A stretch of 43,403 nucleotides of DNA from PVC group bacterium (GCA_043804695.1 JAZDIV010000134.1:1-43403); one strand, 5' to 3'. Numbered from the stretch's first letter, positions 102-33,224 are shown. The notes: generated by a model not told the origin, from the letters alone. A program made the numbers and translations.

Positions 102-389
102 CGCAATCGTTGATGTAAATACTACAACGGTCGGATTAATAGCCCTCGCTGCGCTCGGGCAACGTTCTTAAGTGCCTAACGTTTTCAGCCAGAGGCTGAT
201 CCGCCTCCGGCGGAGAAGTGCCTAAAGTGCCTAAAGTTAAAAAACTACCCGGCGCCGACGAGGCCGTGCGCTATATTGTTTAGTAATTTAACAGTTATTG
301 AAATTCCGAAGCAGCAAGTTAGCGCCTTCGGCGCAACTTGTAGTGTAAAGTGTAAGGTGTAATGTGTAAGGAAACTTTTGCCCCCGTCC

Positions 390-1709
390 TCACGGCACGT
401 TACCCGGTTTGCCCTCTCCTCTTTCTCCTTGAGCATCTTTCTCCCTTCCCAGCCGCCGCTTTTCCACCGCCGGCCCTCTGATTTCCAGCCGGACCAACCG
501 GCGGTCGGTCGCCTGGGTGATCGTGAAGAGATGACCGTGGTAGCTGATCTGTTCACCGGCGGCCGGGATTTTTCCCAGCTGGTCGATCAAGAACCCGGCG
601 ACCGTCTCCTCCTCCTTATCCTCCGGGAGGCTGAGATCCAGGATGTCGTTCAAATCATCCAGCCTCATCCACCCGGAGACCTCGGCCGCCTCTTCCTTCA
701 TTTTGAACGGCGAGACCTCGTCCAGGTCGTACTCGTCGCGGATCTCCCCCACAATCTCCTCGATAATGTTCTCCAGGGTGGCGATCCCGGCCACCCCGCC
801 GTATTCATCAACCACAATGGCCATATTCACATCGTTGTTGCGCAATTCCTCCAGCAATTCATCCAGGGGCTTGCTCTCCGGGACGATGTACGGCTCCCGG
901 ATCAGCGGGACGATGCCCTCTTCGCCGGGAACCGTTACCAGATCGGTCACCTGCACGGTGCCGATGATCTTGTCCACCCGGTCCCGGTAGATGGGGATCC
1001 TGGTATGGCCGCTTTCGCTGATAATCCGCCGGATATCGGCCACGGTCGAATCTTCGGGCGCGAGCGTGACGTCGATCAAGGGGACCATGATCTCGGAGAC
1101 CTCATTCTCGCGGAACTCCAGGACCCGGGCGATCATTCTCTCCTCCTCTTCCGAAAGGGTCCCCTGCTTCTTCCCTTCCTTCATCAGGAGGAGGATGTCA
1201 TCCACCGACGTGAAGAGCCTTCCCTTCTCCGGAGTGACTCCGAACAGCTTTAAGAGGGGGGCGACCAGCCACGAGACAACCTTCACCAGAGGATAGAGAA
1301 GATAATATGCCGACCGAAAGGGATAGCTTAAAACCAGGCTCATCCCGGTCGCCCGGGGACGACTCACATTCTTGGGGATGATCTCAGCGAAGATCAGGAT
1401 CAGCGGCAGCATCACGACAGTGGCTAAAAACGGTCCCCGGTTTCCGAAAGCGAACCCCGTGGAAAAAAGATTCGATGCCACCGTGGCACCCAGGACCATG
1501 AAGAGGTTAATCCCCACCATGGTGGTGGAGAGAAATTTTTCCGGGGTTTCGAGGAACCCCTCGATAATCCAGGCGCGCCGGCCCCCCGATCCGGCAAGAT
1601 GACGGATGCGAAGCCGGTTGGCGGAAACCAGCGACATCTCCGCCGTGCAGAAGAAGGCATGCAGGAAGAGACAGCAAAAAATAATCAGTACGCTGAGACC
1701 GATAGTCAT
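390..1709 (-). CDS. CNNM/hemolysin-family membrane protein (DUF21 + CBS pair + CorC_HlyC)
   Basis: N-terminal TM domain with AFFxxAE and AEIIPK, CBS motifs HTRIPIY and VVDEYGGVAGIATLENIIEEIVGEIRDE, C-terminal CorC-like domain. Confidence 0.92.
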   Translation of the reverse strand: MTIGLSVLIIFCCLFLHAFFCTAEMSLVSANRLRIRHLAGSGGRRAWIIEGFLETPEKFLSTTMVGINLFMVLGATVASNLFSTGFAFGNRGPFLATVVMLPLILIFAEIIPKNVSRPRATGMSLVLSYPFRSAYYLLYPLVKVVSWLVAPLLKLFGVTPEKGRLFTSVDDILLLMKEGKKQGTLSEEEERMIARVLEFRENEVSEIMVPLIDVTLAPEDSTVADIRRIISESGHTRIPIYRDRVDKIIGTVQVTDLVTVPGEEGIVPLIREPYIVPESKPLDELLEELRNNDVNMAIVVDEYGGVAGIATLENIIEEIVGEIRDEYDLDEVSPFKMKEEAAEVSGWMRLDDLNDILDLSLPEDKEEETVAGFLIDQLGKIPAAGEQISYHGHLFTITQATDRRLVRLEIRGPAVEKRRLGREKDAQGERGEGKPGNVP

Positions 1710-1815
1710 ATAAATTAGCTCGCTGCGCTCGCTACTTTATAATGGACCCGACTTCGTCGGGTCTGCTGATTAACCATAATATTTCCTTAATCAGCATAAT
1801 CCGCACAATCCGCGG

Positions 1816-3149
1816 TTAAATAAGTTGCGAAGTTACGTTCTTCTTAAAGTTGCCGGGCGCCGGTCCTTCTTTCTTCAGCCGGGCGCCGATACCTTTCCCC
1901 CGTATCTCCACCTGGCCGATCCGGTGTTTCTTCAAGTTCACCACGGTGAACCGGATATCCCCTTCCTGCCAGACCTCCCCGGGCTGGGGGATATGCCCGA
2001 GACGCTCACAGATTAAACCTCCCAGGGTCACGCTCCTCTTCCCGGCCAGATCGAGTTTTAACTCATTATTGATATTACTCAGCTCCAGCCTTCCCCTGAC
2101 CCGGACGGTGTTCTCGTCCACTATCTCATATTCCCGGGGGGATTCCCCCTGTTGCCGAATCTCCCCCACGATCTCTTCAATCAGGTCCTCCATGGTGATC
2201 AGCCCGGCGAGACCGCCGTATTCATCCACCACCAGGGCGACATGGACTTTCCTTTCCAGAAATTCCTTGAGGAGGCGGGAGGCCTTCATGGTCTCGGGGA
2301 TAAAAAACGGTCGGCGGAGGAAGTCCCCCAGGACCGGACGCTCCACCCCCCGGGCCTGGGCCATGACCAGGTCCTTCGGATAGAGGATGCCGACGATGTT
2401 CTCCATCTTGCCGGAATAAATCGGAATCCGGGAATACTCCTTCTCCCGGATTACAGCGGCAATCTCCTCCAGCGGGGTGTCGATCTCAAATACGACCATC
2501 TCGTTACGGGGGGTCCTCAACTGCCGGACGCTCTTATCCCCCAGTTTGAATATCTCGGTGATCATCTCCCGCTCCTCGCCGTTGAGCGTCCCCTCCCGGG
2601 AACCGAGATCAAGGGCGGCGGTTAATTCCTCCCGGGTCAGGGGGGACTCCCGCGCCGGATGACTTTTTTCAAAGACGGCAAGAATCCAGTCGCTGAGAAA
2701 ATTCACCACCACCCTGACCGGCGTCATCACCCGCTCCAGAAGGGAGATGGCCGGCGCCACCGCCAGAGCCAATTTTTCCGACCGGTTGATGGCCAGAACC
2801 TTGGGAGTCACTTCACCGCAGATCAAAATAACAAAAGTCATCACCACGGTGGAAAAAATCCAGGCCAGGGAACGGAGAGGGCCGGAAGCGAAGATGGTGG
2901 AGGCGACGCGCGCGGCGAGGGTGGCGGAAAAAATATTGACCAGCATGTTGCTCGCCACGATCGACACCAGCAGGCGGCGGGGGTTGCTGAGAAGGCGGTA
3001 GATGATGGTGCCGCGGCCCGGTTTCTGGTGCTTCAGTTTCTCCACCGTAAAAGGGGGGAGAGAAAATAGTGCCGTTTCCGAACCGGAAAAAAGGCGGAAA
3101 AACCAAGCAAAATCGCCAGGATCGCCAGGAATAATAAGGGTACGGTCAT
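1816..3149 (-). pseudogene. Second CNNM/hemolysin-family protein, frameshifted near the N-terminus (true pseudogene or sequencing indel)
   Basis: ATG at 3149 reads MTVPLLFLAILAILLGFSAFF; the conserved SGSETALFSL continues in another frame across an A6 run at 3087-3092; remainder intact (GEVTPK, YSRIPIY, VVDEYGG). Confidence 0.75.
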
Positions 3150-3411
3150 TTTGGGTACTAAAACATACCATATCCGGGAACCGGGGGAAAGAAAATTTAC
3201 ACGTATTTCATCATGCCCATTAGTATGTTATACTGGCGGTTTTAAAGGTGCTAATTTACTGCTTCGGAATTTAAAAAGTCTTTGTGGGAGAAGTTTTCAA
3301 CCTCGATCAGAAAAGCCGCAAATCGGGGTTAAAAACCCCTCCCACATCTTATTCTGTTTTCCTTGGTGTCTTAGTGGCAAAAGTTGCGAGCGCAGCTCGC
3401 TAATTTATATT

Positions 3412-4218
3412 ATGCGCTCCGTCAAGAACTATTACCGTATCCTGAACGTCCGTCCGGATGCCCCGGCCGCCAGCATCCGGGCCTCTTTCCGGCGGCTGGC
3501 CAAGAAGTATCATCCCGATACCAGCGGCCTCGATCCGGCAACCGCCGCCGGGCAGATGCGCGTCCTTCTGGAGGCGTACCGGATCCTGATGGACGCCGGG
3601 AAAAGGGCCGTTTATGATCTCCGCTTCCGGAGACAGCGAACCGAAACCGGCCGTTCCTACCGGGATTCTTTGGAAAAGAAGAAGGACGACCCCTATGCCC
3701 GGGCCCTGCTGATCTTTTATGATCTTCTGCACGGGTCGGCGGGAACGGCGATCAACAACTATGAGTGTCTTCTGAAAAACCGCGGCGGTTCGCTCGACCT
3801 GCCGGCCCTGCTCGGGTTTGCCGATTACCTTGATTTCACCTTCCTGCTGGCGGAGGGTTACCAGCGGCAGGGCCGTTATGAAGAGGCGGCACTCCATTAT
3901 GAGAAAGCATTCCGGGAAGACCTGAAGTGGAACTACTTCCGCCACTTCCGCTCCGAGCTAAAACAGCGGATACGCGACATCTACTGCCAAAAATTAGCCC
4001 GGGAGGCCGAACCCGCAATAGCGATCAAATTCTACACGAAGCTGCTGGAAGAATACAGCTTCCCGAAAAACGAACGGGCCTTCTTCTTAAAGAAGATCGC
4101 CGAATGCTGCTGCCGACTTCATGATCCGGTGAAAGCACGGTCGTATCTGTCGAAAGCCCTCCAGTTGAAACCCACCCTGTCGGGGATCAAAAAAATCCGT
4201 TCTCAGCTAAATATGTGA
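3412..4218 (+). CDS. DnaJ-domain protein with C-terminal TPR-like repeats
   Basis: J-domain NYYRILNV...RRLAKKYHPD with intact HPD; helical TPR-like C-terminus; start trimmed to ATG 3412. Confidence 0.85.
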   Translation: MRSVKNYYRILNVRPDAPAASIRASFRRLAKKYHPDTSGLDPATAAGQMRVLLEAYRILMDAGKRAVYDLRFRRQRTETGRSYRDSLEKKKDDPYARALLIFYDLLHGSAGTAINNYECLLKNRGGSLDLPALLGFADYLDFTFLLAEGYQRQGRYEEAALHYEKAFREDLKWNYFRHFRSELKQRIRDIYCQKLAREAEPAIAIKFYTKLLEEYSFPKNERAFFLKKIAECCCRLHDPVKARSYLSKALQLKPTLSGIKKIRSQLNM

Positions 4219-4304
4219 ATGCCATTTTACCTTGAGGATTTGCATAGATTATAGGCGCTGTTAGAATAGACACATTAAAATTTTTCCGGAGGAAAAATTT
4301 TAAA

Positions 4305-4601
4305 ATGGAGAAGCTGGTGCGAGACAGGATTCCCGAGATCGTTACCGCCGACCGGGGGCGGGAGGCGCCGTTTCGGACAGCCTCCCGGACTGAATATCTC
4401 TCTTTTCTGATGGAAAAACTGAAAGAAGAGGTGGCAGAGTTCCTGGAAAGCCGGGAACCGGCGGAACTGGCCGATATCATGGAGGTCGTCTACCACCTGG
4501 CCGGGGAGGCCGGGATCAGCCCCCGACAACTGGAGAAACTCCGGGCCAGAAAGGCGGAAGAACGGGGCGGTTTCGGCGAGCGGAAGGTGATGGACTTCTA
4601 A
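4305..4601 (+). CDS. MazG-like/PRA-PH all-alpha nucleoside triphosphate pyrophosphohydrolase
   Basis: KLVRDRIPEI, KLxEEVxEF, ELADIxEV, KAEERGGF motifs. Confidence 0.85.
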   Translation: MEKLVRDRIPEIVTADRGREAPFRTASRTEYLSFLMEKLKEEVAEFLESREPAELADIMEVVYHLAGEAGISPRQLEKLRARKAEERGGFGERKVMDF

Positions 4602-4608
4602 ATTATAC

Positions 4609-4728
4609 GTAACACTTTAGCTCTTTGAAAGTTGCGGCCACCTATCTCGTTACCGCGCTCCGCGTGATAACGCTCACCTTACGTTCCCACGCGGAGCGTG
4701 GGAACGAGGGAAAGGGCTAAAGTGTTAC
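4609..4728. mobile_element. 120-bp MITE with 18-bp terminal inverted repeats and 8-bp target-site duplication
   Basis: TIRs GTAACACTTTAGCTCTTT (4609-4626) and AAAGGGCTAAAGTGTTAC (4711-4728), one mismatch; AATTATAC directly repeated at 4601-4608 and 4729-4736. Confidence 0.8.
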
Positions 4729-4745
4729 AATTATACTAATTCAGA

Positions 4746-5132
4746 TCATCGGTCCGCATTGACATCGTCGGCAATATCCTGGTCCCGCTGCTGCTCTTCA
4801 TAGAGACTGTGCATCTTTTCCTGGTCAGTCTTGATCCGGGCATCATCCTGCTGTTCCGACTGAACGAAGACGTCTCCCGGCGCCCGGTAATAGTTGGGAT
4901 TGGATGAGGCCACCCATTGACCGCTCCCGTCCTTGATCAGATAGACGGTCGTCACCTGTCCATCCGGCCCCCTGACCTCGGCGCTGAGGGGAACCGCTTC
5001 CTGATTGATCGATATGACGGCGAATCCGTCCGGGAGGGCCTTCTTGAGCGTCTCAGCATCCTGGGCGATTGACAGGCATGGATACAATCCCCCGGCAATT
5101 AATAAAACAACCATTATTTTCTTCACTTTCAC
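4746..5132 (-). CDS. Hypothetical secreted protein
   Basis: GGAGG SD before GTG start; signal-peptide-like N-terminus (KKIMVVLLIAGG...SIA-QD). Confidence 0.7.
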   Translation of the reverse strand: MKVKKIMVVLLIAGGLYPCLSIAQDAETLKKALPDGFAVISINQEAVPLSAEVRGPDGQVTTVYLIKDGSGQWVASSNPNYYRAPGDVFVQSEQQDDARIKTDQEKMHSLYEEQQRDQDIADDVNADR

Positions 5133-5347
5133 ATACCTCCAAAAGAACTTAGCGCCTTCGGCGCAACGTGGTTACGGTTACGGTGACGATGCCCGTTTCG
5201 TCTGCCGGTTACGGTTACGTGCGCCCAGCGAGGCAACCGTTACCGTTACCCTCACCGATACGGGCTTCGTTACCCTTACCCATCGTGGCATTCGGGCGAT
5301 CACAAGGATCGCCCCTACATTACTATAATGCTTTTGCGACCGGAGTG

Positions 5348-6223: not shown

Positions 6224-6238
6224 CACCTCTCTCCTTTA

Positions 6239-6265
6239 TAAATTAGCGCCTTCGGCGCTAATTTA
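6239..6265 (-). repeat. Type example of the gene-boundary GNA-triloop hairpin (family A)
   Basis: TAAATTAGCGCC-GAA-GGCGCTAATTTA perfect 12-bp stem; related copies at 315, 1711, 3379, 5146, 6289, 7204, 8257, 12208, 20253, 20998. Confidence 0.85.
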
Positions 6266-6314
6266 GATAATCACATATTGCTGAAACATAAATTTGCGAG
6301 CGCAGCGAGCTAAT

Positions 6315-6764
6315 TTATGCGCCGGTATGGCCGAAGCCGCCGGAGTTACGGGGAGTGGTCTCCAGTTCGTCAACCTCCACCCATTCGCCCTTCACCACCT
6401 CCTTAATAACCATCTGGGCCATCCGCATTCCGCGCCGAAGCGTCACGGGTTCCCCCCCCAGGTTGATCATGATCACTCCGATCTCTCCCCGGTAATCGGC
6501 ATCAACCGTCCCCGGCGAATTGACGATGCTCAACCCTTTCTTCAGGGCCAGGCCGCTCCGGGGACGAAGCTGCGCCTCATATCCGGGGGGAAGGGCGATG
6601 AAAATCCCGGCCGGGATGAATTTGATCTCGCCCGGGCGGAGAAGAATTTCATCATCGATCGCTGCCAGCAGGTCCATCCCGGCAGCGCCCTCGCTCATGT
6701 ACCGGGGCAGATGGAGGTCCTCGAACCCCGCTTTTTTTTTGACTTTGATCCGGATTTCGGACAT
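6315..6764 (-). CDS. dut: dUTP diphosphatase
   Basis: All five dUTPase motifs: AGMDL, RPRSGLA, GTVDADYRGE, RMAQMV, RNSGGFGHTG. Confidence 0.95.
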   Translation of the reverse strand: MSEIRIKVKKKAGFEDLHLPRYMSEGAAGMDLLAAIDDEILLRPGEIKFIPAGIFIALPPGYEAQLRPRSGLALKKGLSIVNSPGTVDADYRGEIGVIMINLGGEPVTLRRGMRMAQMVIKEVVKGEWVEVDELETTPRNSGGFGHTGA

Positions 6765-6772
6765 TTTGAATC

Positions 6773-6860
6773 GTACGGGCGAATCTTGTATTCGCCCGTA
6801 TCCAGGCAATCAAGTGGGCGATCACAAGCCTGCCTGCCGGCAGGCAGGGATCGCCCCTAC
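6773..6860. repeat. Cluster of REP-like palindromes between HIT and dut
   Basis: TACGGGCGAAT/ATTCGCCCGTA hairpin, perfect palindrome CCTGCCTGCCGGCAGGCAGG, and GGGCGATC...GATCGCCCCTAC (similar copy at about 5294-5319). Confidence 0.65.
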
Positions 6861-7198: not shown

Positions 7199-7434
7199 CT
7201 TATTAAATCAGCGCCCGCGGCGCTAACCTTTTTAGGGCTATGTCCGGGGATTACCAGACGGTATATTTATCCCCGGATTGGATATCAGGTTATCAGGATA
7301 TCAGTGGGCAGAATACCGGGATATCAGATTATCAGGCGAGGCCGGACCCGCCGACTGATCTTCTGATAGTCTGATCCCCTCCCTACTGATCTCCTGATTA
7401 TCTGATCCGCTTATGCGGCTTTTATTCCTCCCCT

Positions 7435-8244
7435 TTACCTCTCCTCATCCTCCTCGCTGGCAACCGGGCGGGCAAAGCGGATCCGGCTCAACTGATCGAC
7501 GTCCAGGGTCACCATCTGGTCGGCCGAGACCAGCATTTTGATCTGGGGAGGCTCCAGAAAGCCGCTGATGATATCCCCGTTCTTCAATTTGACCACCTGC
7601 TGGAGAACCTCGGCTTCACGATCGATCAGGACCTCACTGATCAGGTCCCGATCAATGATCAGCGTGCCGTAGGCGGTCCTGATCTTGAAACGGGGATCAA
7701 GCAGCTCCCCGGAGATGATGTCGCCCTCAAAGGTAATAAAACGGTCCTCGACCAGCGGGGGGGGGACAATAAGAGGGATACCGGCGGAAGCCTCTCCTCC
7801 CGCCGGCAGGCCGTTTTCGTCCACGAAGACCAGCCCCCGAACCAGCGTAGCGTTGATCTCAAACGGCCCGTACTCGGACCAGCCTTTCATATTATACTCG
7901 TCGACAAAGAACTCGGTAAAATCGTCTTCGCTCCCGTCCCGGAACCGGACCCGGGTGATGAACCGGCCGATCTGCCGGGCGGAAGCGACATCGGCAAAGG
8001 GGAGGGTGACCAGGTCGAGGCTCTGCCGCCAGCGGGCGCGGAAATCTTCGCTTTCAATGTTATAGTTCTTTTCGAAGACCTTGAAATTGCAGAGGTTGAT
8101 CTGCTGATTGTCAATTGTATGAACCTGGACATTATAGGAGGGGGGCGGGGGCGGCGTCACGCAGGCGTTCAGGATAACGCAGATCCCGACCGGGAGAAGC
8201 GCGGGCCATCTCCGTTTCAGTCCCGAAAAGTACCGGCATTTCAT
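7435..8244 (-). CDS. Hypothetical lipoprotein
   Basis: AGGAG SD; signal peptide with lipobox LNA-C followed by a Pro linker. Confidence 0.7.
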   Translation of the reverse strand: MKCRYFSGLKRRWPALLPVGICVILNACVTPPPPPSYNVQVHTIDNQQINLCNFKVFEKNYNIESEDFRARWRQSLDLVTLPFADVASARQIGRFITRVRFRDGSEDDFTEFFVDEYNMKGWSEYGPFEINATLVRGLVFVDENGLPAGGEASAGIPLIVPPPLVEDRFITFEGDIISGELLDPRFKIRTAYGTLIIDRDLISEVLIDREAEVLQQVVKLKNGDIISGFLEPPQIKMLVSADQMVTLDVDQLSRIRFARPVASEEDEER

Positions 8245-8514
8245 TATCAGCTCCTATAAATTAGCGCCTTCGGCGCAACTTTTCGCCACCAAGACACCAA
8301 GACACTAAGGAAAACCATATAAGGCGAATATTTTGCCCTTTCCCTTCTTTCCTTGGTGCCTTGGTGCCTTGGTGGCTAATATTATTAAAATTCCAAAGCA
8401 AGAAACGTTGCCATCCTTGTTTTTATATTCCTAATACGGCAGATGCCCGGCGTTTGTTCAACCGGATTACTTTCGACTTCCGCCAGAATAGAGAATAAGC
8501 GAAGCCTTTTCCAC

Positions 8515-9918: not shown

Positions 9919-9984
9919 TGCCGTGAAGGTGAAGGATGTTTAGGAAAACTTTAATCTACCAATAAGCCCACGAAGATCACGAAG

Positions 9985-10026: not shown

Positions 10027-10058
10027 CAACTAAATTTTCGGAACGAAAATTTAAAAAT

Positions 10059-11567: not shown

Positions 11568-12205
11568 GTGCTAATTTCGCTCAGAAGGCTGACCAGTTCT
11601 TCCCGGGCCAGCCCGGCGTACATGGTCCGGGGGAAGCGCTCGATCACCGACCGGTAGGCCTCGAGGGCTTCGTCATACCGGCCCAGCCGGACCAGGCAGC
11701 GGCCCCTATTCACGCCGGCTTCCGGTTCCAGGGAAGAGCCGGGGTAACGCTCCCCGATCCGGCCGTACCCGGCGAGCGCCTCCTCCAGCTTCCCCGCGCT
11801 CTCCAGGCAGTAAGCCGCCCCCATCTGGGCAAAGGGGGCCAGCCGGTGGGCGGCATACCGGCCGATAAAGAGCCGGTAGGTATCCCGCGCCTGATCGAAC
11901 TCTCCCGCATCGTAAAGAGCGGCGGCCAGCTGGATCAGAGCCAGCGGGGCGGCGGGAGTGTCGGGATACCGGTCAAAGACAGCCCGCAGATCTTCCCGGG
12001 ACCGGGCCGCGCCGAGTTCAGTCTCCGCCCGGGCAATCGTGCCGGCGGTGTGATAAGAGACGGCGGCAAAAATCACGGCCCCCGCCACCAGAATGATTCC
12101 CAGGACGAGGGCGGCCGCCCGGTATCTTCGCATGAATGAAGCGGTGGTGGCGACGGCATCCACCAGACCGTCGTGTCTCATTTCTTTGACGGTGATCTTC
12201 TTCAT
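11564..12205 (-). CDS. Membrane-anchored TPR protein (YfgM-like)
   Basis: Single N-terminal TM segment followed by TPR repeats (YPDTPAA, YPGS motifs). Confidence 0.8.
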   Translation of the reverse strand: MKKITVKEMRHDGLVDAVATTASFMRRYRAAALVLGIILVAGAVIFAAVSYHTAGTIARAETELGAARSREDLRAVFDRYPDTPAAPLALIQLAAALYDAGEFDQARDTYRLFIGRYAAHRLAPFAQMGAAYCLESAGKLEEALAGYGRIGERYPGSSLEPEAGVNRGRCLVRLGRYDEALEAYRSVIERFPRTMYAGLAREELVSLLSEIST

Positions 12206-12384
12206 AATAAATTAGCGCCTCCGGCGCTAATTTAGGTAATTGTTTTTCTTAACATGAATACAAAATAATCACAATTACAAATTTTTAGTATAAAGCTACG
12301 ATCGGCGCCATCTGATTTATTACTTTATTTTCATGGTAATGAAAATAAAAACTGATATTTTTTCCCCGGGGCGGGGAGAGAGCG

Positions 12385-17075: not shown

Positions 17076-17088
17076 AGGGAGAAGTTGG

Positions 17089-19325: not shown

Positions 19326-20219
19326 TCAATAATTGGTGGGGGTGGCGGCGGCCTGGTTATCTTTCGCTCTGATGATTTTCAGGCCGGCGCTGGCGCCGAG
19401 CCGGGTGGCGCCGGCCCCGACCATCGCCTCGGCGTCTTCAAATGTTCTCACCCCGCCGGACGCCTTGACCCCGATATCCGGCCCCACCACCTTTCTCATC
19501 AGGGCGATATCCGCGACCGTCGCGCCGCCGGTGCTGAAGCCGGTCGAGGTTTTGACAAAGTCGGCTCCCGCCTCCACGCTCAGCTCGCAGGCCCTGACTT
19601 TCTCCTCGTCGATCAGCAGGCAGGTCTCCAGGATCACCTTGACCAGGATGTTGGGACGGGTCGCCCGCACCACCGACCGGATGTCTTCCCGGACCCGGTC
19701 GTACTGCCGGGACTTGATGAGGCCGACGTTGATCACCATGTCCACCTCGGTAGCCCCCTTACCGATCGCATCCCTGGTTTCATAGGCCTTGGTCTCGGAG
19801 GTGTCGGCGCCGAGCGGGAAGCCGATGACCGTGCAGACCTTGACCCCGGAACGCCGCAGCAACTTCGCCGAGAGCTCAACCCAGACCGGGTTGATGCAGA
19901 CCGAGGCGAAACAGTAGGTGTCCGCTTCCCGGCAGAGCTGACGGATCTGATCCTCGGTCGCTTCGGGCTTGAGCAGGGTGTGATCGATCATCCTCGCGAT
20001 CTTCGCCTCCACCGGGCCGATCCCCAGCTGGGTGCTGAGCCGGCAGACCCCGTTCGAGACCAGGCTCTCGATGAAATCGGGGCGCTTGGCGACGCACTGC
20101 CCGCACTCCAGACAGATGAGTCCGCTTTCCACGCCGCACGCCCCCCCGGACGGGGCGGACCCGTTCAGGGCGGCCATCACTTCCCGGGTGACTCGATCAA
20201 TCAATGCTTGGGTGTCCAT
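19326..20219 (-). CDS. deoC: Deoxyribose-phosphate aldolase with N-terminal encapsulation peptide and Cys-rich segment
   Basis: [43 protein letters not shown]-terminal amphipathic helix [13 protein letters not shown]. Confidence 0.95.
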
Positions 20220-20340
20220 TGTAAAATTTTTCTCCGAAAAATTTTAGTTCTTTAAATTAGCTCGCTGCGCTCGCTAATTTATATTATTCGTGTAATTCGT
20301 CGAAGATCCTGAGCGAAGTCGAAGGGCGAAATTCGTAGTT

Positions 20341-20907
20341 CTACTTTCGTTTGCGCTCGATGGCCATGATCTTGTTGACCCGGGGCCAGTGCCGTCCGCC
20401 GGCGAACTCGACGGTCAGCCAGAGGCTGACGATCTCCGCCGCCAGGGAGGGATTGAGTGTCTTCCCGCCCAGGGTCAGGACATTGGCGTCGTTGTGCTCG
20501 CGGCTGCTGCGGGCAGTGGTCAGGTCATAACACATGGCCGCCCTGATCCCCCGGACCTTGTTGGCCGCCATCGCCGAAGCCATCCCGAGGCTGTCGATCA
20601 TGATCCCCCGGTCGCAGTCCCCGGAAGCGACCGCCCGGGCGACTTGCTCCGCGAAATCGGGGTAATCCACGGCGGCGGCGCTGTCCGTCCCCATGTCCTT
20701 CACGGTGTACCCTTTTGCCTCCAGGAACCGGACCAGCTCCTCTTTCAGGGGGAATCCCCCGTGATCGGCCCCGATGGCGATCCTCTTCACCGACCCTTTC
20801 TTTTCAGTGACAGTGCTCATGGGAACCTCGTTGGCGGGCCCCTTCACGATCGGGGACGCCTCTTTCATCACCTCGTCGACAATTTTTTCCAGCCGGCTCT
20901 GATCCAT
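20341..20907 (-). CDS. rpiB: Ribose-5-phosphate isomerase B family protein with N-terminal encapsulation peptide
   Basis: GADHGG, VDYPD, AANKVRGIRAA, REHNDANVL, FAGGRH; N-terminal helix LEKIVDEVMKE. Confidence 0.9.
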   Translation of the reverse strand: MDQSRLEKIVDEVMKEASPIVKGPANEVPMSTVTEKKGSVKRIAIGADHGGFPLKEELVRFLEAKGYTVKDMGTDSAAAVDYPDFAEQVARAVASGDCDRGIMIDSLGMASAMAANKVRGIRAAMCYDLTTARSSREHNDANVLTLGGKTLNPSLAAEIVSLWLTVEFAGGRHWPRVNKIMAIERKRK

Positions 20908-20985: not shown

Positions 20986-21155
20986 CATCTTTATTTATAA
21001 ATTAGCTCCCTTCGGTCGCTAATTTATGTCTATCGCATTTTATTGCAGCGAAAATAGATTGATAATGGATAGAGAATCAGTTTAGCTCCAACAGATCACA
21101 CTATAATCCGATTTATTTATAAATCGGATTAGTTTTGAAGCATAATAACGATAGT

Positions 21156-21198
21156 CCGGGATTATTCATGAAAAGTAAAATTCCATGAATAATCCGGG
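21156..21198. repeat. Palindromic element CCGGG-TTATTCATGAAAA...CATGAATAATCCGGG, copy 1
   Basis: Near-identical copy at 28599-28649. Confidence 0.75.
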
Positions 21199-21266
21199 AT
21201 AATGCTATATTGTATGCAGTGCTCATGAACAAGCAGGGGGAAAGATTCTTTTTCCCGGCAAAAAGT

Positions 21267-22697: not shown

Positions 22698-22784
22698 CTG
22701 GTATAAGCTCGATAATCTGATATATAGTAGTCATTATCATTGTTCATCTCAATACAGGTACATTTTTTCGGAGAATATTTTATT

Positions 22785-23084
22785 ATGCAGCTGGCAAGGG
22801 TGGTGGGGACGGTGGTCGCCACCAGGAAGGACGAGAAGATGGAGGGGGTGCCCTTCATGGTCCTCCGCGACCTGAATTTGGAAAACAAACCGACCGGAGG
22901 ATCCATCATCGCCGCCGACCCGATCGGGGTGGACCGGGGGGAAGTCGTGCTCTACTCCAAGGGAAGCTCCGCCCGGCAAACCGAGATGACCCGGGACCGT
23001 CCCAACGACGCGGTGATCTGCGGCGTGGTCGACCAGTGGGAAGTGAACGGGGTGAAGAAATATCACAAGTTTAAAGAAGAATAA
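22785..23084 (+). CDS. BMC pentameric vertex protein (EutN/CcmL), copy 1
   Basis: MQLARVVGTVVATRK, AADPIG, GSSAR, DAVICGVVD. Confidence 0.92.
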   Translation: MQLARVVGTVVATRKDEKMEGVPFMVLRDLNLENKPTGGSIIAADPIGVDRGEVVLYSKGSSARQTEMTRDRPNDAVICGVVDQWEVNGVKKYHKFKEE

Positions 23085-23136
23085 TCCGGCGGTTCACCGC
23101 CGGATCACTAAAATTTTTCGAAGAAAAAATTTTAAA

Positions 23137-23406
23137 ATGAATTTAGGCAAAGTCATCGGCACCGTCGTCAGCACGCAGAAGATGGAGGCGTTCCGGGGGG
23201 TCAAGTTCCTGATCGTCCAGCCCCTGGACGAGAACCTGAAGCCGAACGGCGAACCGGTGGTCGCCTGCGACAGCCAGCAGGCCGGACCGGGTCAGATCGT
23301 GACCTTCATCGGAGGAAGGGAGGCGTCGCTGCCCCTTCCGGATCCGTTCAACCCTTCGGATGCCACCATTACTTCTATTGTTGATGAAGTCACTCTGGGT
23401 CGGTGA
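23137..23406 (+). CDS. BMC pentameric vertex protein (EutN/CcmL), copy 2
   Basis: MNLGKVIGTVVSTQK, VACD, AGPG, DATITSIVD. Confidence 0.92.
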   Translation: MNLGKVIGTVVSTQKMEAFRGVKFLIVQPLDENLKPNGEPVVACDSQQAGPGQIVTFIGGREASLPLPDPFNPSDATITSIVDEVTLGR

Positions 23407-23463
23407 TCAGTGATCGGTAATCAGTAATCGGTACATCCACGCCGGAGCGCTGAACATACTAAC

Positions 23464-23763
23464 GTGAAGATCGGCAAGGTCATCGGGAACGTCGTCGCGA
23501 CGTTGAAACTGGAGCAGTACGAGGGGGAAAAACTGCTCCTGGTCAAGGTCCTCGATCCCGACGGGTCGGAGACCGCCGAGACCCTGGTCGCCTTCGACCG
23601 CTGCCAGGCGGGGAAAGGCGACGTCGTCCTCCTGATCGACGAGGGGAACAGCGCCCGGATGGTCCTGGAGACCGGGCCGACCGGCGTGGTCCGGGCGGTC
23701 TGTGTCGGCTACGTGGACGCGGTCAACACCTATAAATCCGATCCCGCTTCCTACGGCTCGTAG
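23464..23763 (+). CDS. BMC pentameric vertex protein (EutN/CcmL), copy 3
   Basis: KIGKVIGNVVATLK, VAFD, AGKGD, EGNSAR, VGYVD; GTG start. Confidence 0.9.
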   Translation: MKIGKVIGNVVATLKLEQYEGEKLLLVKVLDPDGSETAETLVAFDRCQAGKGDVVLLIDEGNSARMVLETGPTGVVRAVCVGYVDAVNTYKSDPASYGS

Positions 23764-24438: not shown

Positions 24439-24475
24439 TTCGTTACAATCCGGGTGTACCTATTTGTTCCGTCCC

Positions 24476-25510: not shown

Positions 25511-25562
25511 CTGCACAATTCCTCTTATTGACATTCAGAGGCAGTACGGAAACGCCGCCGCC

Positions 25563-27056: not shown

Positions 27057-27173
27057 AACAAACCTCCTAACCTGGTGTTATTCTTCCTGTTAACGCTGCC
27101 GGCAGAAGTAGATCTTTGGCTGTAATTCATTGCCAAAGAATTTGATAAAATTAATATCTTTTCGTGTGGCTGT

Positions 27174-28523: not shown

Positions 28524-28598
28524 TAGGATAAGAAAAAACCAGTCTGCTGTAGCCGCACAACAGAGATGACAATGTTTAAAATGTTGAACGGCGGTTAT

Positions 28599-28649
28599 TA
28601 ACCCGGGTTATTCATGAAAATATAACATTTTCATGAATAATCCGGGTTA
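28599..28649. repeat. Palindromic element, copy 2
   Basis: TAACCCGGGTTATTCATGAAAAT...ATTTTCATGAATAATCCGGGTTA. Confidence 0.75.
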
Positions 28650-28653
28650 CTGA

Positions 28654-29871: not shown

Positions 29872-29913
29872 AAGCAAACGTCCGCCCGGGAGGGCGATAC
29901 CGGTGAGGCCGGT

Positions 29914-30099
29914 TTAATAGGGGACGCCGAAGTTCGGCTGCTGCTCCCACGGTTCCGGCTCCCCCCAGGGGATGGACGACCCCCCCTCGGGAGTGGAGCA
30001 GCCGGACACGGCGGCGGCAACGGCAAGTAAAAAAATCGCCAGAAGTATCAAACCCCCGGCTCCCCCCTTCTTTCTACTGCTGTCAATGTGCTGTTTCAT
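29914..30099 (-). CDS. Small lipoprotein
   Basis: GAGGGG SD, hydrophobic signal, lipobox VSG-C, mature peptide SSIPWGEPEPWEQQ. Confidence 0.7.
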   Translation of the reverse strand: MKQHIDSSRKKGGAGGLILLAIFLLAVAAAVSGCSTPEGGSSIPWGEPEPWEQQPNFGVPY

Positions 30100-30130
30100 G
30101 GATGATCCCCTCTCATATCGGGGAACCAGT

Positions 30131-30219
30131 ATAGTAACCGGAGGCGACATTCCCGGTCAAGTAGTGATCTCAAAGGAAATTATTAAATTCATTGCACAAC
30201 AACTATCGGTCTCTATAAT
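30131..30219. promoter_or_regulatory. Divergent putative sigma70 promoters
   Basis: Plus: TTGCAC-N16-TATAAT (30192-30219); minus: TTGACC-N18-TACTAT (30160-30131). Confidence 0.5.
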
Positions 30220-30293
30220 AGACACCTCTCAGTTATTCTTAGCCGTCATGTAATTATTAATTTTTGCGAAGCAAAAATTACGGAGAAAAAATT

Positions 30294-31862
30294 ATGCTCA
30301 AGGGAATGCGCAGAAGCGCCAAGCAGATACTCTGGCCGCTCATCATCGCCCTGGTCATTACCATGGGGGGCTACGGGGTCTGGTACCTGGTCCGGCCGGA
30401 GGTCGCCACCTCCCAGGCCGGCGTCATCTGGGGAGAAAAGATCACGCTGGAAGAGTTCATCCAGACGGCGCGAACGGCTCAGGCCGTCGCCGCCTTCTCC
30501 GGTCAGGAACTCAATCAGAACCAACTCTACACCCTCGCCTGGCGACGGCTGCTTTCACAGAAAGAAGCGGAGAAGATGGGGGTCACCACCACCCGGAAGG
30601 AGCTGGTCTTTTTTCTGGCGCGGTGGCCGGCTTTCCAGGTCAGGGGGAAATTTGACCCCCGGCGATACCGCCAGGCCCTCGACTCCCTCGGCATGGAAGC
30701 GGGCGCTTTTGAAGACCAGGTTCAAAAGCTCCTGGCCATCGACAAGATGGGGCTGATCATCCAGAGCCAGGCCCTTGTCTCCGAAGATGAAATCGCCCAG
30801 ACCTATCAGCGGCTGAACGAGAAGATCCGGGTCGAATACGTCCAGATCGCCCAGGAACAGTTCAGCGTTCAGACCGGGATCGCCGACCTGGAGCTGGCCG
30901 AATTCTACCGGCAGAACACGTCCCGGTTCCAGGTCCAGACCCAGGTTGAGATCCGTTACATCCTGATCCCCTGGAAAAAATTCGCGGGCGAGGTTTCGGT
31001 CACTCCGGAAGAGATCGAGGCCCGGTACCGGGAGAGCTCCGTTTCCTTTGCCGGCGAAACCGGCAAAGCGCCGAAACTATCGGATGTCGAAGACGCGCTT
31101 CGGGAGGAGCTCGTCCGGGAGAAGGCGGAGAAAGGAGCCGCGGCGATGGCCGATGCCGTCAACCGGCGCCTGGACGATGCGAATTCCCTGGAGCGGCCGG
31201 CGGAAGAGTTTTCCCTTTCCATCCGGGAGAGCGGCCCGTTCGGGGCCGATGAGCCCGTCCCGGGGCTGGGAGACCTCCCGGAGATCAACCGGCTGGCTCT
31301 GACGATGGAGATCGACGAAGTCGTCAGCTACCCCGTGCCCGGACCCGAGGGCTTTATCTTCTTCCAGGTGACCGGCAAGAAAGACGCGTCGATTCTCCCC
31401 TTCGAGGAGGCACGGGAGGAGATCATAAAAATCATCGGCGAGGAACGGGCCCGGCAGGAAGCGATGAACGCGACCCGCAACGCGCTGACCGAGGTCCGGC
31501 GGCTGATGACGGACGAGGAATACGACTTTGAATCTGCGGTGACGGAACTGGGTCTGAAGACGGTGACCACTCCCTTCTTCAGCCGGGAGGGCTCGGAGGA
31601 TATCCCGGCTTCCCCCCTCTTTGTCCAGGCGTCTTTCCTGACGGTGCCGGGCAGGGCCAGCGAGATTGTCCCGACTGAAGAAGGCTTCGTTTTCCTGACG
31701 GTAAGCGGGAGAGAACCGGCCGGCCCGATGCCAAAAGACGAGAAAGAGCGATGGGAGGCGGCCACCCGTAAGTACAAGGCGGCCCTTGTTTACGACACCT
31801 GGTTCAACAACCTCATCCAGGAGTCGAAGTTCTCGATCACGAATAAAGACCTGGCCCCATAA
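30294..31862 (+). CDS. SurA N-terminal / PpiD-like periplasmic chaperone
   Basis: N-terminal TM, AFQxxGKFDxxxY, SEDEI, degenerate parvulin-like region (TTPFFSR, GFVF). Confidence 0.8.
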   Translation: MLKGMRRSAKQILWPLIIALVITMGGYGVWYLVRPEVATSQAGVIWGEKITLEEFIQTARTAQAVAAFSGQELNQNQLYTLAWRRLLSQKEAEKMGVTTTRKELVFFLARWPAFQVRGKFDPRRYRQALDSLGMEAGAFEDQVQKLLAIDKMGLIIQSQALVSEDEIAQTYQRLNEKIRVEYVQIAQEQFSVQTGIADLELAEFYRQNTSRFQVQTQVEIRYILIPWKKFAGEVSVTPEEIEARYRESSVSFAGETGKAPKLSDVEDALREELVREKAEKGAAAMADAVNRRLDDANSLERPAEEFSLSIRESGPFGADEPVPGLGDLPEINRLALTMEIDEVVSYPVPGPEGFIFFQVTGKKDASILPFEEAREEIIKIIGEERARQEAMNATRNALTEVRRLMTDEEYDFESAVTELGLKTVTTPFFSREGSEDIPASPLFVQASFLTVPGRASEIVPTEEGFVFLTVSGREPAGPMPKDEKERWEAATRKYKAALVYDTWFNNLIQESKFSITNKDLAP

Positions 31863-31878
31863 ATTACTTTTTGCTCCA

Positions 31879-33153
31879 TTATGCGCTCTCCGCTTCCGGA
31901 TCCCACCGGGCACTGAGATCCGGATAGATCGGGAAAGCTCGGGTCAAGAGCAACGTTTCCCGCTTGATCCGGCCGATCGTCTCATCATCATCGATCTTCA
32001 CTATGACCTCCGCGATCCAGCGGCCGATCAGTTTCATCTCTTCTTCCTTCATCCCCCTGGTGGTCACTGCGGGGGTCCCCAGCCGGATGCCGCTGGTCTT
32101 GCTGGCGGGGAGGGGGTCAAAGGGGATCAGGTTCCGGTTGCAGCAGATGCCGGCCCGGATCAGCGCCTCCGCCGCCTGCTTTCCGCTGATGCCCTTGTTC
32201 CGGAGATCGACCAGGAGCAGGTGATTGTCCGATCCCCCGGCGACCAGCCGGAACCCCGCGCCGAGCAGGGTCTCGCCCAGGACGCGGGTGTTGCTGATGA
32301 TCTGGCGCTGATACTCCCTGAAGGCGGGCTGCAGGGCTTCCTGGAGCGCGACCGCCTTGGCCGCAATCACGTGCATCAGGGGGCCGCCCTGGATGCCCGG
32401 GAAGACGCTCCGGTCAATCTGCCGGCCGAACTCCTTCCGGCAGAGGATCATCCCTCCCCGCGGCCCCCGGAGGGTTTTATGGTTGGTGACGGTCACGAAC
32501 TCGGCGAGGGGGACCGGATCCGGATGGCATCCGGCCACCACCAGGCCCGCGATATGGGCGATGTCCGCCATCAGGTACGCCCCTACCTCGTCGGCGATTT
32601 CCCGGAACCGGTCAAAATGAATCACCCGGGGATAGGCGCTGGCGCCTGCGATGATCATCCGGGGATGGTGCTCGCGGGCCAGGCGGGCGGCCTGATCGTA
32701 ATCGATCAGCTCGGTATCCGGGCTCACCCCGTAGGAGATGACATTGTAAAGCTGCCCGGAGAAGTTGATCTTGTGGCCGTGGCTGAGATGGCCGCCATGG
32801 TCGAGATTCATGGCCAGGATGGTCTCGCCCGGCTGAAGGAAGGCAAAGTACACCGCCATGTTGGCCTGGCTCCCGGAATGGGGTTGGACATTGGCGTGGG
32901 CGGCGCCGAAGAGCCGGCAGGCGCGCTCAATCGCCAGGCTTTCCGACCGGTCCATCCACTCGCACCCCCGGTAGAACCGGCGCCCCGGATATCCTTCCGC
33001 ATACTTGTTGGTGAAGACGCTGCCGAGCGCGGCCAGAACCGCCGGGCTGGCATAGTTCTCGGAGGCGATCAGGAGGACCTCCTCCTCCTCCCGCCGCAAT
33101 TCGCCGTAGATAGCTTCGGCGATATCCCTGTCAACGTTCCACAGGTTCTCCAT
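31879..33153 (-). CDS. glyA: Serine hydroxymethyltransferase
   Basis: [47 protein letters not shown]. Confidence 0.97.
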
Positions 33154-33155
33154 TT

Positions 33156-33180
33156 TAAAATTTTACTCCGTAAAATTTTA
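33156..33180 (-). repeat. Type example of the gene-boundary GNA-triloop hairpin (family B)
   Basis: TAAAATTTTAC-GGA-GTAAAATTTTA then AA-ATG of glyA; related copies at 4276, 10031, 20222, 22762 (degenerate), 23109, 30258. Confidence 0.85.
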
Positions 33181-33224
33181 TCGGTTCCGACTGCGTCGGA
33201 ACTTTTTTAATTATACGACAACTA

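Follow-up and report, generated by a model that had tools for sequence, protein, structure and literature searches.

Distribution of G-N-A hairpins

Short palindromes with AT-rich arms and a three-base G-N-A loop recur at gene borders throughout the window, the 43,403-nucleotide stretch of DNA analysed here, and raise the question of what kind of element they represent and why the G-N-A strand is so regularly directed at a gene. A palindrome is present at every position listed in the first-pass annotation of the window, and a scan of the whole genome (2.97 Mb) for AT-armed stems with a G-N-A loop recovered 387 intergenic and 29 genic copies, so that the polar hairpins, with their orientation bias at borders, are a real genome-wide feature. 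Chance tests gave 18 matches to TAAATTAGC with at most one mismatch against 3.6 expected (maximum of 8 in 100 shuffles), and 12 matches to TAAAATTTT against 0.16 expected. The proposed enrichment for G-N-A is likewise borne out, this loop or its complement being found in 674/2140 three-base-loop hairpins of the genome (31%, against 12.5% for 8/64 loops). Repeats account for 44% of the intergenic bases. Gene borders come from a crude ORF caller of our own, which called 2347 genes (81% coverage), and single distances may err; the gene identities given for the window derive from Pfam.

Most hairpins described in the window face a gene start at a distance of 1-13 nt. Among those of the A-type, 1711..1739 (minus strand; GCA) lies 1 nt before the ATG of a CNNM/CorC gene (390-1709), 3379..3407 (plus; GCA) 4 nt before a DnaJ-domain gene starting at 3412, and 12208..12234 (minus; GGA) 2 nt before the ATG at 12205, while 5147..5169 (minus; GAA; previously placed at 5146) is 13 nt from the GTG at 5132, with GGAGG in between. 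The hairpins at 6239..6265 and 8257..8282 (both minus; GAA) end at conserved leaders, the former exactly at the TAAAGGAGA leader of a PNP_UDP_1 (mtnP-like) gene and the latter at the ATAGGAGCTG leader of gene 7435-8244. B-type hairpins are found 2 nt before the ATG at 4305 (4276..4302, plus; GGA), a DeoC-family gene start at 20219 (20222..20246, minus; GGA), the second of two EutN genes (23109..23134, plus; GAA) and an SHMT start at 33153 (33156..33180, minus; GGA), and 13 nt before the ATG at 30294 with GGAG in between (30258..30280, plus; GAA), while a degenerate B-type copy precedes the first EutN gene (22762..22784, plus; GGA). A variant (7208..7226, minus; previously placed at 7204) is located 9 nt before a HIT gene start. 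Two hairpins are associated with stop codons. As had been stated, the last three bases of 6289..6317 (plus; A-type, GCA) complement the TAA stop of the dUTPase gene, and 10031..10053 (plus; B-type, GAA) is 5 nt away from the stop codon of the gene annotated as a porin, an Alginate_exp-family outer-membrane gene, and before a classical terminator. The remaining A-type copies comprise 20253..20281 (minus; GCA), in tandem with 20222 and facing a start 33 nt away, 20998..21026 (minus; GAA), 90 nt from the start at 20907, and 315..340 (GAA on the minus strand), which faces the contig start, its neighbor on that side lying out of view, and after which tandem 7-nt units run on the plus strand.

Orientation and cassette anatomy

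The G-N-A strand points toward rather than away from the gene in 167/171 copies within 20 nt of a start (167/4) and in 69/81 within 20 nt of a stop (69/12), as well as at tRNA and tmRNA ends (19/4; 19/23), so the previously noted polarity toward gene ends holds at all three kinds of border. The nearest border is on the 3′ side of the hairpin in 290/352 cases. In sequence from relatives the ratio is 16/0, and among 63 metagenome loci the 3′ side alone had a border in 30, the 5′ side alone in two and both sides in four, with none called in 27. When loop strand was compared with gene direction and replichore, as the first-pass annotation had recommended, it followed the gene end, with no replication or skew polarity; G-N-A lies on the G-rich strand (by GC skew) in ratios of 92:25 at starts, 14:44 at stops and 51:46 far from borders. 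Orientation follows the neighboring gene end, and neither the GC-skew strand nor the transcribed strand. A purely translational role is ruled out, as tRNA genes obey the same orientation rule.

The hairpin forms the 3′ end-module of polar repeat cassettes. Read along the G-N-A strand, similarity between copies extends to the region before the hairpin, where approximately 50% of copies have a match at -50 and 30-40% at -100, and ends within about 20 nt past the loop, alike for starts and stops. Recurrent cassette bodies (F1-F3) can be distinguished. In a set of 115 elements with a repeated body of 40-185 nt, 76 have a gene border no more than 5 nt from the hairpin end, as compared to 17 for the 5′ end. 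Among stop-facing ends, 21/35 hairpin ends abut the border against 11/64 of the 5′ ends (Fisher p=3e-5), while the raw excess at stops for these bodied elements is only 21 to 11 (p=0.11). The hairpins would therefore appear to point at genes because they constitute the 3′ end of the element, the end that is joined to or kept at borders, which provides a simpler explanation of at least part of the polarity than the boundary signal originally proposed. Near-identical, and therefore young, copies abut gene borders exactly.

Loop and stem rules

Unique loops comprise GAA (129), GGA (90), GCA (53) and GTA (12), with a C-G closing pair in 265/284, and the stems covary as described, 10.3/11 positions being paired against 5.0 after shuffling of the partner arms. 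In the window the loops on the gene-facing strand read GAA, GGA or GCA except at sites 7204, where the loop is GCG, and 22762, where the stem is imperfect; the closing pair is 5′C-G3′ with 10031 (G-C) as the sole exception. The loop rule of the first-pass annotation is thereby upheld, with 22762 as an addition to the exceptions it had recorded. Tandem G.A mismatches occur on the G-N-A strand at 1711, 6289, 20253 and 20998. According to the text available from PMC13037366, only GNA among 64 loops forms a DNA mini-hairpin, the melting temperatures rank A>G>C>T, and the stability of the DNA form greatly exceeds that of its RNA equivalent. The observed order of loop usage and the C-G closure coincide with this published rule, as the earlier link to DNA stability had anticipated, and together with the tandem G.A pairs on the same strand they favor a single-stranded DNA stage as the most likely setting in which the hairpins fold.

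If a nucleoid or insulator protein marked gene borders by binding a site in double-stranded or cruciform form, this could account for palindromes that are perfect, with AT-rich arms that melt easily, at the borders of transcription units, and for G.T and A.C mismatches being balanced (18:19, 7:4 and 16:25), as if both strands count. The families, however, have widely different arms and share nothing but the loop rule, making a sequence-reading dimer unlikely; a symmetric binder would also leave the fixed loop direction unexplained, and merely 5% or so of gene borders (240 of some 4700) bear a hairpin. We consider such a site highly improbable.

Promoter function is scarcely more credible. The AT-rich 5′ arm could supply a -10 box with initiation at the purine loop, and copies with 12-bp stems do carry TAAATT, TAAAAT, TATAAT or TATTAT at -12 to -7 from the loop G. 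Abundant TCTTATTTTT arms, however, have no A at -11, a -35-like hexamer suitably spaced from the in-arm -10 is found in about 9/168 start copies and equally in 7/73 at stops, and antisense transcription would result from the copies that face the 3′ ends of genes and tRNAs. Alternatively, an extruded DNA hairpin might be read by a polymerase or primase in the manner of phage N4, since GGA/GAA mini-hairpins serve both the N4 virion RNA polymerase and the primase of RSF1010 (PMC13037366, from the text available). Given established polymerase polarity, however, the hairpin strand would then be the template and transcription would leave the gene.

Restriction to one clade, turnover and retention

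The A-type core is present in 5/79 genomes of the phylum (89, 46, 61, 11 and 1 copies), while the B-type pattern reaches 161, 122 and 136 copies in three genomes and at most 21 in any other; among viral contigs the A-type core has only three matches. Within the family, multiplication of the hairpins is restricted to one clade, consisting of the genus of the window and one or two sister genera. Inspection of orthologous junctions, a comparison the first-pass annotation had called for, revealed turnover. Many window copies are missing at orthologous borders, where the spacers of G024 and G022 consist of a few bases, and the same border may be occupied by different hairpin families in different genomes. 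The hairpin at 1711 is absent at the orthologous CNNM/CorC start in G018, G024 and G022, the dUTPase stop codon has the same position in five genomes with the hairpin in G000 only, those at 7208 and 20253 are likewise found in G000 only, and the ATAGGAGCTG leader is conserved in G018 without a hairpin. Among the compared relatives, which are 70-88% identical in genes, neither a target-site duplication nor a fresh empty site could be demonstrated.

Other borders retain a hairpin. The DeoC-family start is occupied in four genera, with GGA hairpins of different, still paired stems in G018, G017 and G022 and none in G024. Three genera share occupancy with different paired stems at the mtnP-like start (G018 has the hairpin at this position and G017 a GAA hairpin with other arms, and G024 and G022 have none), the start of gene 4305 (GGA hairpins with different stems in G018 and G017) and the outer-membrane gene stop (same place and direction in G018, with GGA, and in G017, with GAA and one extra paired A-T). 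Related hairpins precede the DnaJ-domain gene in G018 and G017, with none in G024 and G022. The hairpin at the first EutN start is perfect in G018, while G024 retains CCGGAG 12 nt from the ATG without the 5′ arm, and an A-type hairpin occupies the ATG of the second EutN gene in a metagenome relative. The SHMT-start hairpin is kept in G018, where one change gives T.G on the G-N-A (sense) strand. Conservation of position while the stems differ yet stay paired argues against mere junk and for a function in place.

Retention of this kind makes use in the transcript possible, and the claim that the hairpins act at the DNA level rather than as mRNA elements accordingly overreaches, in view of hairpins kept at the same start in three to four genera and of promoter-like pairs at five tRNA genes. 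The hairpins could be RNA-level border elements, either 5′ leader stem-loops serving stability, start-region insulation or processing, or 3′ stem-loops after the stop codon that, like REPs, would affect the terminating ribosome or decay, with mobility secondary. Copies within 20 nt of a start number 168, with distances peaking at -2 to +2, and in G000, relatives and metagenome loci the 3′ end of the hairpin is separated by 0-3 nt from the ATG or by 1-3 nt from a Shine-Dalgarno leader that is conserved, a Shine-Dalgarno-like motif being present in 93/139 start copies. Loop choice also varies by border, with GGA enriched at starts (75/168) and GCA at stops (29/73 vs 12/168 at starts), which looks like selection on transcripts. 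Promoter-like -35/-10 pairs, identified by eye, would place the start of transcription at the hairpin foot of the genes for tRNA-Val, Arg, Gln, Tyr and Val, and in the window a promoter-like TTTGCA-17-TAGAAT lies 4 nt upstream of the 4276 hairpin. The tRNA-Ile and tRNA-Ala genes, which probably lie in the spacer of an rRNA operon, are flanked by hairpins. An analogy is provided by the REPs of E. coli, which stall ribosomes when they are no more than 15 nt from a stop codon (PMC12306157, in the text available). Against an origin in RNA function, the transcript would carry a weak U-N-C version of the loop, along with C.U mismatches, at stops (69/81) and tRNA 3′ ends (6/8), and the balance of the mismatches, with G.U not in excess over A.C, is unlike that of a strand-selected RNA. 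A stable stem ending at -1 to -3 would be expected to hinder ribosome binding. The spacing from loop G to ATG peaks at 17 nt, and a loop-borne GGAGG would stand 12 nt from the ATG as compared to the usual 5-9 nt in this genome. On balance an RNA-level origin is tentative, though a more serious contender than the promoter or the cruciform.

Proposed origin of the hairpins

We suggest, with a probability of about 0.5, that small, polar and mosaic intergenic repeats without genes, which pass through a single-stranded DNA stage, have these hairpins as their terminal stem-loop module. The form under selection would be one folded single strand, most likely DNA that is exposed during copying or insertion by some enzyme. 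The 3′ hairpin end of the element, and not its 5′ end, would be joined to or kept at gene borders, and so come to lie immediately upstream of the Shine-Dalgarno motif or ATG, over the stop codon or right behind it, or at mature tRNA ends. Once in place many copies would be transcribed, and some may have been selectively retained as leader or trailer hairpins. Polarity and the DNA-type loop rule, as recognized in the first-pass annotation, thus stand, while its boundary function is not borne out and its exclusion of a role in mRNA is too strong.

No link was found to the suggested HUH/REP-type transposase. Six Y1_Tnp (HUH) genes were identified by profile matches in the genome and in none of these (0/6) do G-N-A hairpins serve as flanks within 2.5 kb; around the copy at C62:12037-12336 the flanking repeat is of another, GC-rich kind. 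Copy number of Y1_Tnp tracks hairpin richness only loosely, with 6, 9 and 20 copies in hairpin-rich genomes and 2-4 elsewhere, but 14 in the hairpin-poor G025. That no matching enzyme is found among the six genes counts against the repeat origin favored here, and the exact abutment of young copies falls outside its account. A more specific and rather doubtful proposal is that the C-GNA-G hairpin is the recognition structure of a candidate single-stranded DNA enzyme (a nickase, transposase or primase-like protein), which would join or keep the 3′ end of the element precisely at the edges of functional units (Shine-Dalgarno motif or ATG, stop codon, tRNA ends). If so, these repeats would represent a border-seeking class of bacterial repeat, which the host may exploit as a portable leader or trailer, and the loop direction would encode in DNA that the gene lies this way.

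Comparison with known repeats

The elements resemble in kind REP/BIME, BOX, Correia and Neisseria REP2 repeats. With the REP/BIME/REPIN-RAYT systems they share short length, high copy number, an extragenic palindromic form and strand-specific folding, in a genome with Y1_Tnp genes. A GTAG-type head 5′ of the stem is a hallmark of REP/REPIN sequences, and a subfamily here has GTAG in the 5′ arm; of approximately 144 A-type copies 39 have an AGTA(G) head and 79 an ATTA(G) head, with the head within the stem and not free. Some known REP copies also lie within 15 nt of stop codons (PMC12306157, in the text available). Unlike REPs, however, the present hairpins have AT-rich arms and a strict 3-nt G-N-A loop, are mostly start-facing, flank no RAYT gene (six Y1_Tnp genes) and are depleted in convergent spacers (0.26 per kb vs 0.75-0.82). 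REPIN-type inverted doublets are not the common unit, as 309/406 regions contain one hairpin only, 40/406 outward pairs and 14/406 hairpins at both edges.

Neisseria REP2 and similar Borrelia repeats are comparable in their location directly upstream of genes, as for the start copies here, but the same end-module here also abuts stop codons and tRNA ends, and we know of no counterpart of the G-N-A loop rule in REP2. REP2 brings a ribosome-binding site and start context and has internal stem-loops (PMC3184786, in the text available). Portable leader repeats of the REP2 type also supply a promoter; none could be demonstrated at the start copies here (2/168). Streptococcus BOX and Neisseria Correia elements are modular or bounded by terminal inverted repeats, with hairpin-forming ends and intergenic sites close to genes. 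The present elements have a similar mix-and-match build, hairpin-forming ends and intergenic placement near genes; they differ in being polar with a single defined hairpin end, and neither a terminal inverted repeat pair nor a TA duplication was demonstrated. Compared with MITEs, only one end is a defined hairpin and no duplication was seen at junctions, the relatives being too distant for empty-site alignment; maximal palindromes with TA at both termini (115/387) are only suggestive of TA duplication. The d(GCGNAGC) mini-hairpins of phage origins, ssi signals and N4 early promoters share the C-GNA-G core, and their stability ranking equals the loop usage here. They are, however, individual functional sites on the single strands of phages or plasmids, whereas the chromosome here carries hundreds of copies at gene borders, with AT-rich stems of 11-12 bp.

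Two further classes were rejected. Intrinsic (Rho-independent) terminators, in which a U run comes after a GC-rich stem, do not fit, as the B-type has a T run before the core and an A run after it on both strands, the real terminator of the outer-membrane gene lies beyond the hairpin, and such a terminator follows 3/73 stop hairpins. CsrA/RsmA binding hairpins, which present GGA in a loop over the ribosome-binding site, were discounted since PF02599 was found in 0/14 genomes of the order, with positive controls.

Additional hairpins that were absent from the first-pass annotation can be observed in the window. GC-rich partners lie on the same strand as 1711, in the same cassette (1745..1763, minus; GAA), and as 33156 (33184..33202, minus; GCA). 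A separate GC-rich family is represented at 4648..4706 by two outward-facing GGA hairpins located 9 nt apart in a convergent spacer (4648-4672 and 4682-4706), an arrangement similar to a REP doublet.

Hairpin anatomy in the window

Palindromes are present in the window at every site named in the first-pass annotation and belong to two arm families. The arms of A-type hairpins consist of TAAATTAGC and a GC-rich inner stem, while those of B-type hairpins consist of TAAAATTTTT and one or two G-C pairs. In both types the stem is 11-13 bp long and encloses a three-base loop, which reads GAA, GGA or GCA on one strand and is closed by a 5'C-G3' pair, with the exceptions of a GCG loop at 7204 and an imperfect stem at 22762. 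Matches to the arm words in the window number 18 (3.6 expected by chance) and 12 (0.16 expected). In the A-type copies at 1711, 6289, 20253 and 20998, two stem pairs are replaced by tandem G.A mismatches, which in each case are located on the G-N-A strand. The identities of the neighbouring genes were confirmed by comparison against Pfam, including a dUTPase-encoding gene on the minus strand and an outer-membrane gene of the Alginate_exp family. Tandem units of 7-8 nt (GTGTAAR, GGTTACG and CACCAAGA) can furthermore be observed directly 5' of several A-type hairpins on the G-N-A strand (341-385, 5170-5200 and 8283-8310; also 5230-5300 and 8330-8380), in some cases as facing arrays.

Polarity toward gene borders

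The genome from which the window derives as contig C134 (G000; 2.97 Mb, 155 contigs, 57.8% G+C) was scanned for hairpins with a three-base loop, a stem of 10 bp or more and no more than two mismatches, and gene borders were delineated with a simple codon-usage gene caller (2347 genes, 81% coverage), for which gene starts are approximate. A total of 2140 hairpins were identified, and G-N-A or its complement forms the loop in 674 of these (31%, versus 12.5% expected), an enrichment which the first-pass annotation had set as a test of its proposal. Those with AT-rich arms are predominantly intergenic (387 versus 29 genic). For 290 of 352 hairpins the nearest gene border, comprising 209 starts and 81 stops, lies 3' of the G-N-A strand, while it lies on the 5' side for the other 62. 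Distances to starts peak at -2 to +2 nt and cluster again at 11-15 nt, and distances to stops fall mostly between -12 and +5 nt. Among hairpins within 20 nt of a border, 167 face toward and four away from a start (p=2e-44), and 69 face toward and twelve away from a stop (p=7e-11). A looser scan anchored on C-GNA-G yielded 267 outward-facing and 40 inward-facing hairpins at region edges. On these counts the postulated polarity toward genes holds, including at stop codons, where G-N-A is located on the non-coding strand.

The loop sequence differs with the type of border, with GGA commoner at starts and GCA at stops, and the stop codon is TAA or TAG at 61 of 73 stop hairpins, compared to 60% genome-wide. 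Convergent spacers contain three-fold fewer hairpins per kb than other spacers do (p=1e-6). Nine genes carry both a start and a stop hairpin, versus 5.2 expected by chance; start and stop hairpins are mutually independent, and the idea of a gene cassette, in which such hairpins bracket each gene or pair 5' to 3', was rejected on this count.

The same orientation is observed at the 37 tRNA and tmRNA genes predicted with ARAGORN. Hairpins with G-N-A loops adjoin the mature ends with gaps of mostly -4 to +3 nt (one at 29 nt); thirteen face the 5' end, six face the 3' end and four face away, two of the latter being GC-rich, terminator-like stems. As the orientation rule holds at tRNA genes, ribosome binding cannot be its basis. 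A promoter of the sigma-70 type immediately preceding the hairpin was recognized for only 2/168 start copies and, by eye, at some tRNA genes only, and the idea of such an upstream promoter was rejected. An identity of the AT-armed hairpins as classical terminators was likewise rejected. Palindromes with AT-rich outer arms are found directly 3' of most tRNA genes in G000, and in the hairpin-poor cases the palindromes following tRNA genes are classical terminators with an A-run, GC-rich stem and T-run. AT-armed hairpins flank each of the tRNA-Ile and tRNA-Ala genes on contig C48, which presumably lie within an rRNA operon spacer.

The first-pass annotation had further proposed that loop strand be weighed against gene direction and replichore. 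Genes lie on the locally G-rich strand in 1082 cases and off it in 394, while the corresponding ratios for hairpins are 92:25 at starts, 14:44 at stops and 51:46 far from borders. As start hairpins follow the bias of the genes, stop hairpins reverse it and distant hairpins are unbiased, hairpin direction is set by the neighbouring gene end rather than by the G-rich strand, and a replication-strand polarity was rejected on the same ratios, which derive from short contigs in which skew is confounded with gene strand.

By a simple rule, a GC-rich stem with a T run occurs within 110 nt downstream of only 165/2202 genes, and a Shine-Dalgarno motif was found within 20 nt for only 604/1511 well-scored genes, which suggests that gene punctuation is unusual in this organism.

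The hairpin as the end of a polar repeat

When hairpin copies are aligned in register, sequence similarity extends upstream on the G-N-A strand, with approximately half of the copies matching at -50 and 30-40% at -100, and ends abruptly just beyond the hairpin at starts and stops alike. One recurrent body of approximately 170 nt terminates in TCTAAATTAGCGCC-GGA-GGCGCTAATTTATA, and copies of this body, which are nearly identical, end at TATG or TAATG, immediately ahead of GGGAGG, or on a stop codon. A set of 115 such cassettes, with repeated bodies of 40-185 nt, was compiled. The hairpin end is situated no more than 5 nt from a gene border in 76/115 and the 5' end in 17/115, with a median gap of 99 nt for the latter. 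Hairpin ends abut the border they face at 42/80 starts and 21/35 stops, and 5' ends at 7/51 starts and 11/64 stops. The hairpin forms the terminal part of a polar repeat. This accounts for part of the polarity, since a body-carrying hairpin can adjoin a gene only when facing it, but not for which end sits at the border. Hairpins without a recognizable body show the same direction (36 toward and none away at starts; 14 and four at stops).

Repeated sequence makes up 44% of the intergenic bases in G000. An element bounded by terminal inverted repeats was rejected in the form of outward-facing hairpins at both region edges, which are rare (14/406 regions). Contig ends within ~150 nt of a hairpin are common (e.g. 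C148:19, C154:55, C40:51, C60:58, C61:115 and C137:60), and as contigs so often begin or end near hairpins, the assembly has probably been broken by these repeats and true copy numbers probably exceed those counted.

A DNA mini-hairpin rule

Among 284 unique hairpins, the loop is GAA in 129, GGA in 90, GCA in 53 and GTA in twelve, and 265 are closed by C-G and two by G-C. On average 10.3 of 11 stem positions are paired, versus 5.0 after shuffling of the partner arms, and each position is occupied by several types of pair. Data summarised in a 2026 review indicate that, among the 64 possible loops in GCNNNGC, a mini-hairpin is formed by GNA alone, that melting temperatures of the DNA form rank A>G>C>T at the central base, and that for a related mini-hairpin the RNA counterpart melts at 39 °C and the DNA at 76.5 °C (PMC13037366); dependence on the closing pair has also been reported (PMC3201870). 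Loop usage in G000 tracks this DNA stability ranking. The transcript at stops and tRNA 3' ends would bear the U-N-C complement together with C.U mismatches. Mismatches of G.T and A.C are balanced (18:19 at starts, 7:4 at stops and 16:25 far from borders), and on the G-N-A strand G.A mismatches outnumber T.C mismatches (73:27 at starts). Together, these observations favour a single-stranded DNA stage. Nearest-neighbour folding energies are equal for G-N-A and T-N-C loops, whether as DNA or RNA, and therefore cannot decide between DNA and RNA; only those of the tandem G.A variant differ (-3.6 versus -2.7 kcal/mol as DNA; -5.5 versus -3.4 as RNA).

Mobility and distribution

The DNA-level reading in the first-pass annotation is partly supported; its HUH/REP-type mechanism and the function as a signal remain proposals. 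Six matches to the HUH transposase domain Y1_Tnp are present in G000, and none of the six is flanked by AT-armed hairpins. One Y1_Tnp gene, located in the region C62:11650-13030, has GC-rich CCCCTGCCGC-GCAAG-GCGGCAGGGG repeats with GCAAG-type loops on either side and in both orientations, a classical RAYT/REP arrangement; the sequences of these repeats and of the AT-armed hairpins are unrelated. Within the order, Y1_Tnp counts are 6, 9 and 20 in three hairpin-rich genomes, 2-4 in the hairpin-poor genomes of the family and 14 in the hairpin-poor relative G025, and these genomes are kin and hence not independent. The A-type core sequence is present in 5/79 genomes of the phylum. A phage origin was rejected with only three matches to this core in viral contigs, as were CsrA sites, CsrA being absent from 14/14 genomes of the order. 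A fold-back (templated palindrome) origin would point the G-N-A strand away from the gene and was set aside on reasoning only.

Conservation and turnover in relatives

Comparison of syntenic regions with four relatives, namely G018 of the same genus, G017, G024 and G022, bears on the presence or absence of hairpins at orthologous junctions, a comparison which the first-pass annotation had proposed: some are retained in three to four genera, while seven (1711, 6289, 7204, 12208, 20253, 20998 and 23109) occur in G000 only. At the start of a DeoC-family gene, a GGA hairpin with differing arms is found in four genera, and G024 has only GAGGG, 8 nt and ATG. A GAA hairpin at the mtnP-like start ends exactly at a conserved TAAAGGAGA leader in three genera, with quite different outer arms in G017. 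At the stop of the outer-membrane gene, a hairpin of the same direction, with one compensated extra pair, is retained in three genera and lies downstream of the stop codon and upstream of a classical terminator. This is evidence that some copies matter in place, and for such retained copies a role in the RNA is a live rival to the DNA-level reading. At the sites of G000-only hairpins, the spacers of G024 and G022 often comprise a few bases.

In distant metagenome relatives, A-type hairpins end at ATG or at the 5' edge of a conserved Shine-Dalgarno leader, and an EutN start preceded by a B-type hairpin in G000 has an A-type hairpin in one of these relatives. Three EutN/CcmL-family genes are arranged in tandem in the window (22785-23763), with a B-type hairpin before the first two; the third has a hairpin in G018 and none in G000, and the spacers are entirely different among G000, G018 and G024. 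The exact 41-nt cassette end had no matches in metagenome contigs. The 27-nt hairpin was found at 63 metagenome loci, the flanks of which are only 69-83% identical to G000, and therefore no empty-site alignment or target duplication was obtainable from them.

Relation to known repeats

Small intergenic repeats are commonly viewed as junk without precise placement or as elements that stabilise 3' ends. In the best-supported reading, the present repeats form a family specific to one clade; they are polar, mosaic and devoid of genes, their terminal hairpin obeys the DNA mini-hairpin rule, and their hairpin end would be joined to functional units, or retained, at the extreme edge of these units. 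Literature searches for such hairpins returned analogues and no description of the repeats of this clade. The closest known systems are REP/BIME, BOX, Correia and especially the Neisseria REP2 repeats, which are reported directly upstream of genes, where they supply the ribosome-binding site (PMC3184786), while the stop-adjacent copies most closely resemble the Escherichia coli REPs reported within 15 nt of stop codons (PMC12306157). The repeats described here differ from all of these in their strict G-N-A loop rule, AT-rich arms and one-ended polarity, and in abutting starts, stops and tRNA ends alike. One structural rule covers several hundred copies, and in several genera one end of the element is positioned 0-3 nt from a start codon, ribosome-binding site, stop codon or tRNA end. 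Placement by an enzyme would point to a novel specificity of insertion, and placement maintained by selection would make the hairpin a naturally occurring, portable module for the borders of both protein and RNA genes in a phylum of which little is known. Under both scenarios, the annotation of gene starts, leaders and operon borders in these genomes is affected.

Other palindrome families

A separate GC-rich family, CGTTCCCACGC-GGA-GCGTGGGAACG, forms outward-facing doublets ~9-30 nt apart, one of which occupies a convergent spacer in the window (4648-4706), with at least six further occurrences in G000; the arrangement resembles that of classical REP doublets. Palindromes of the form ATTATTCATGAAAATT-GAA-AATTTTCATGAATAAT make up a fourth family, in which CCGGG/CCCGG borders the 16-bp arms; this family is found in the window at ~21170-21215 and 28585-28635, with at least 13 copies genome-wide.
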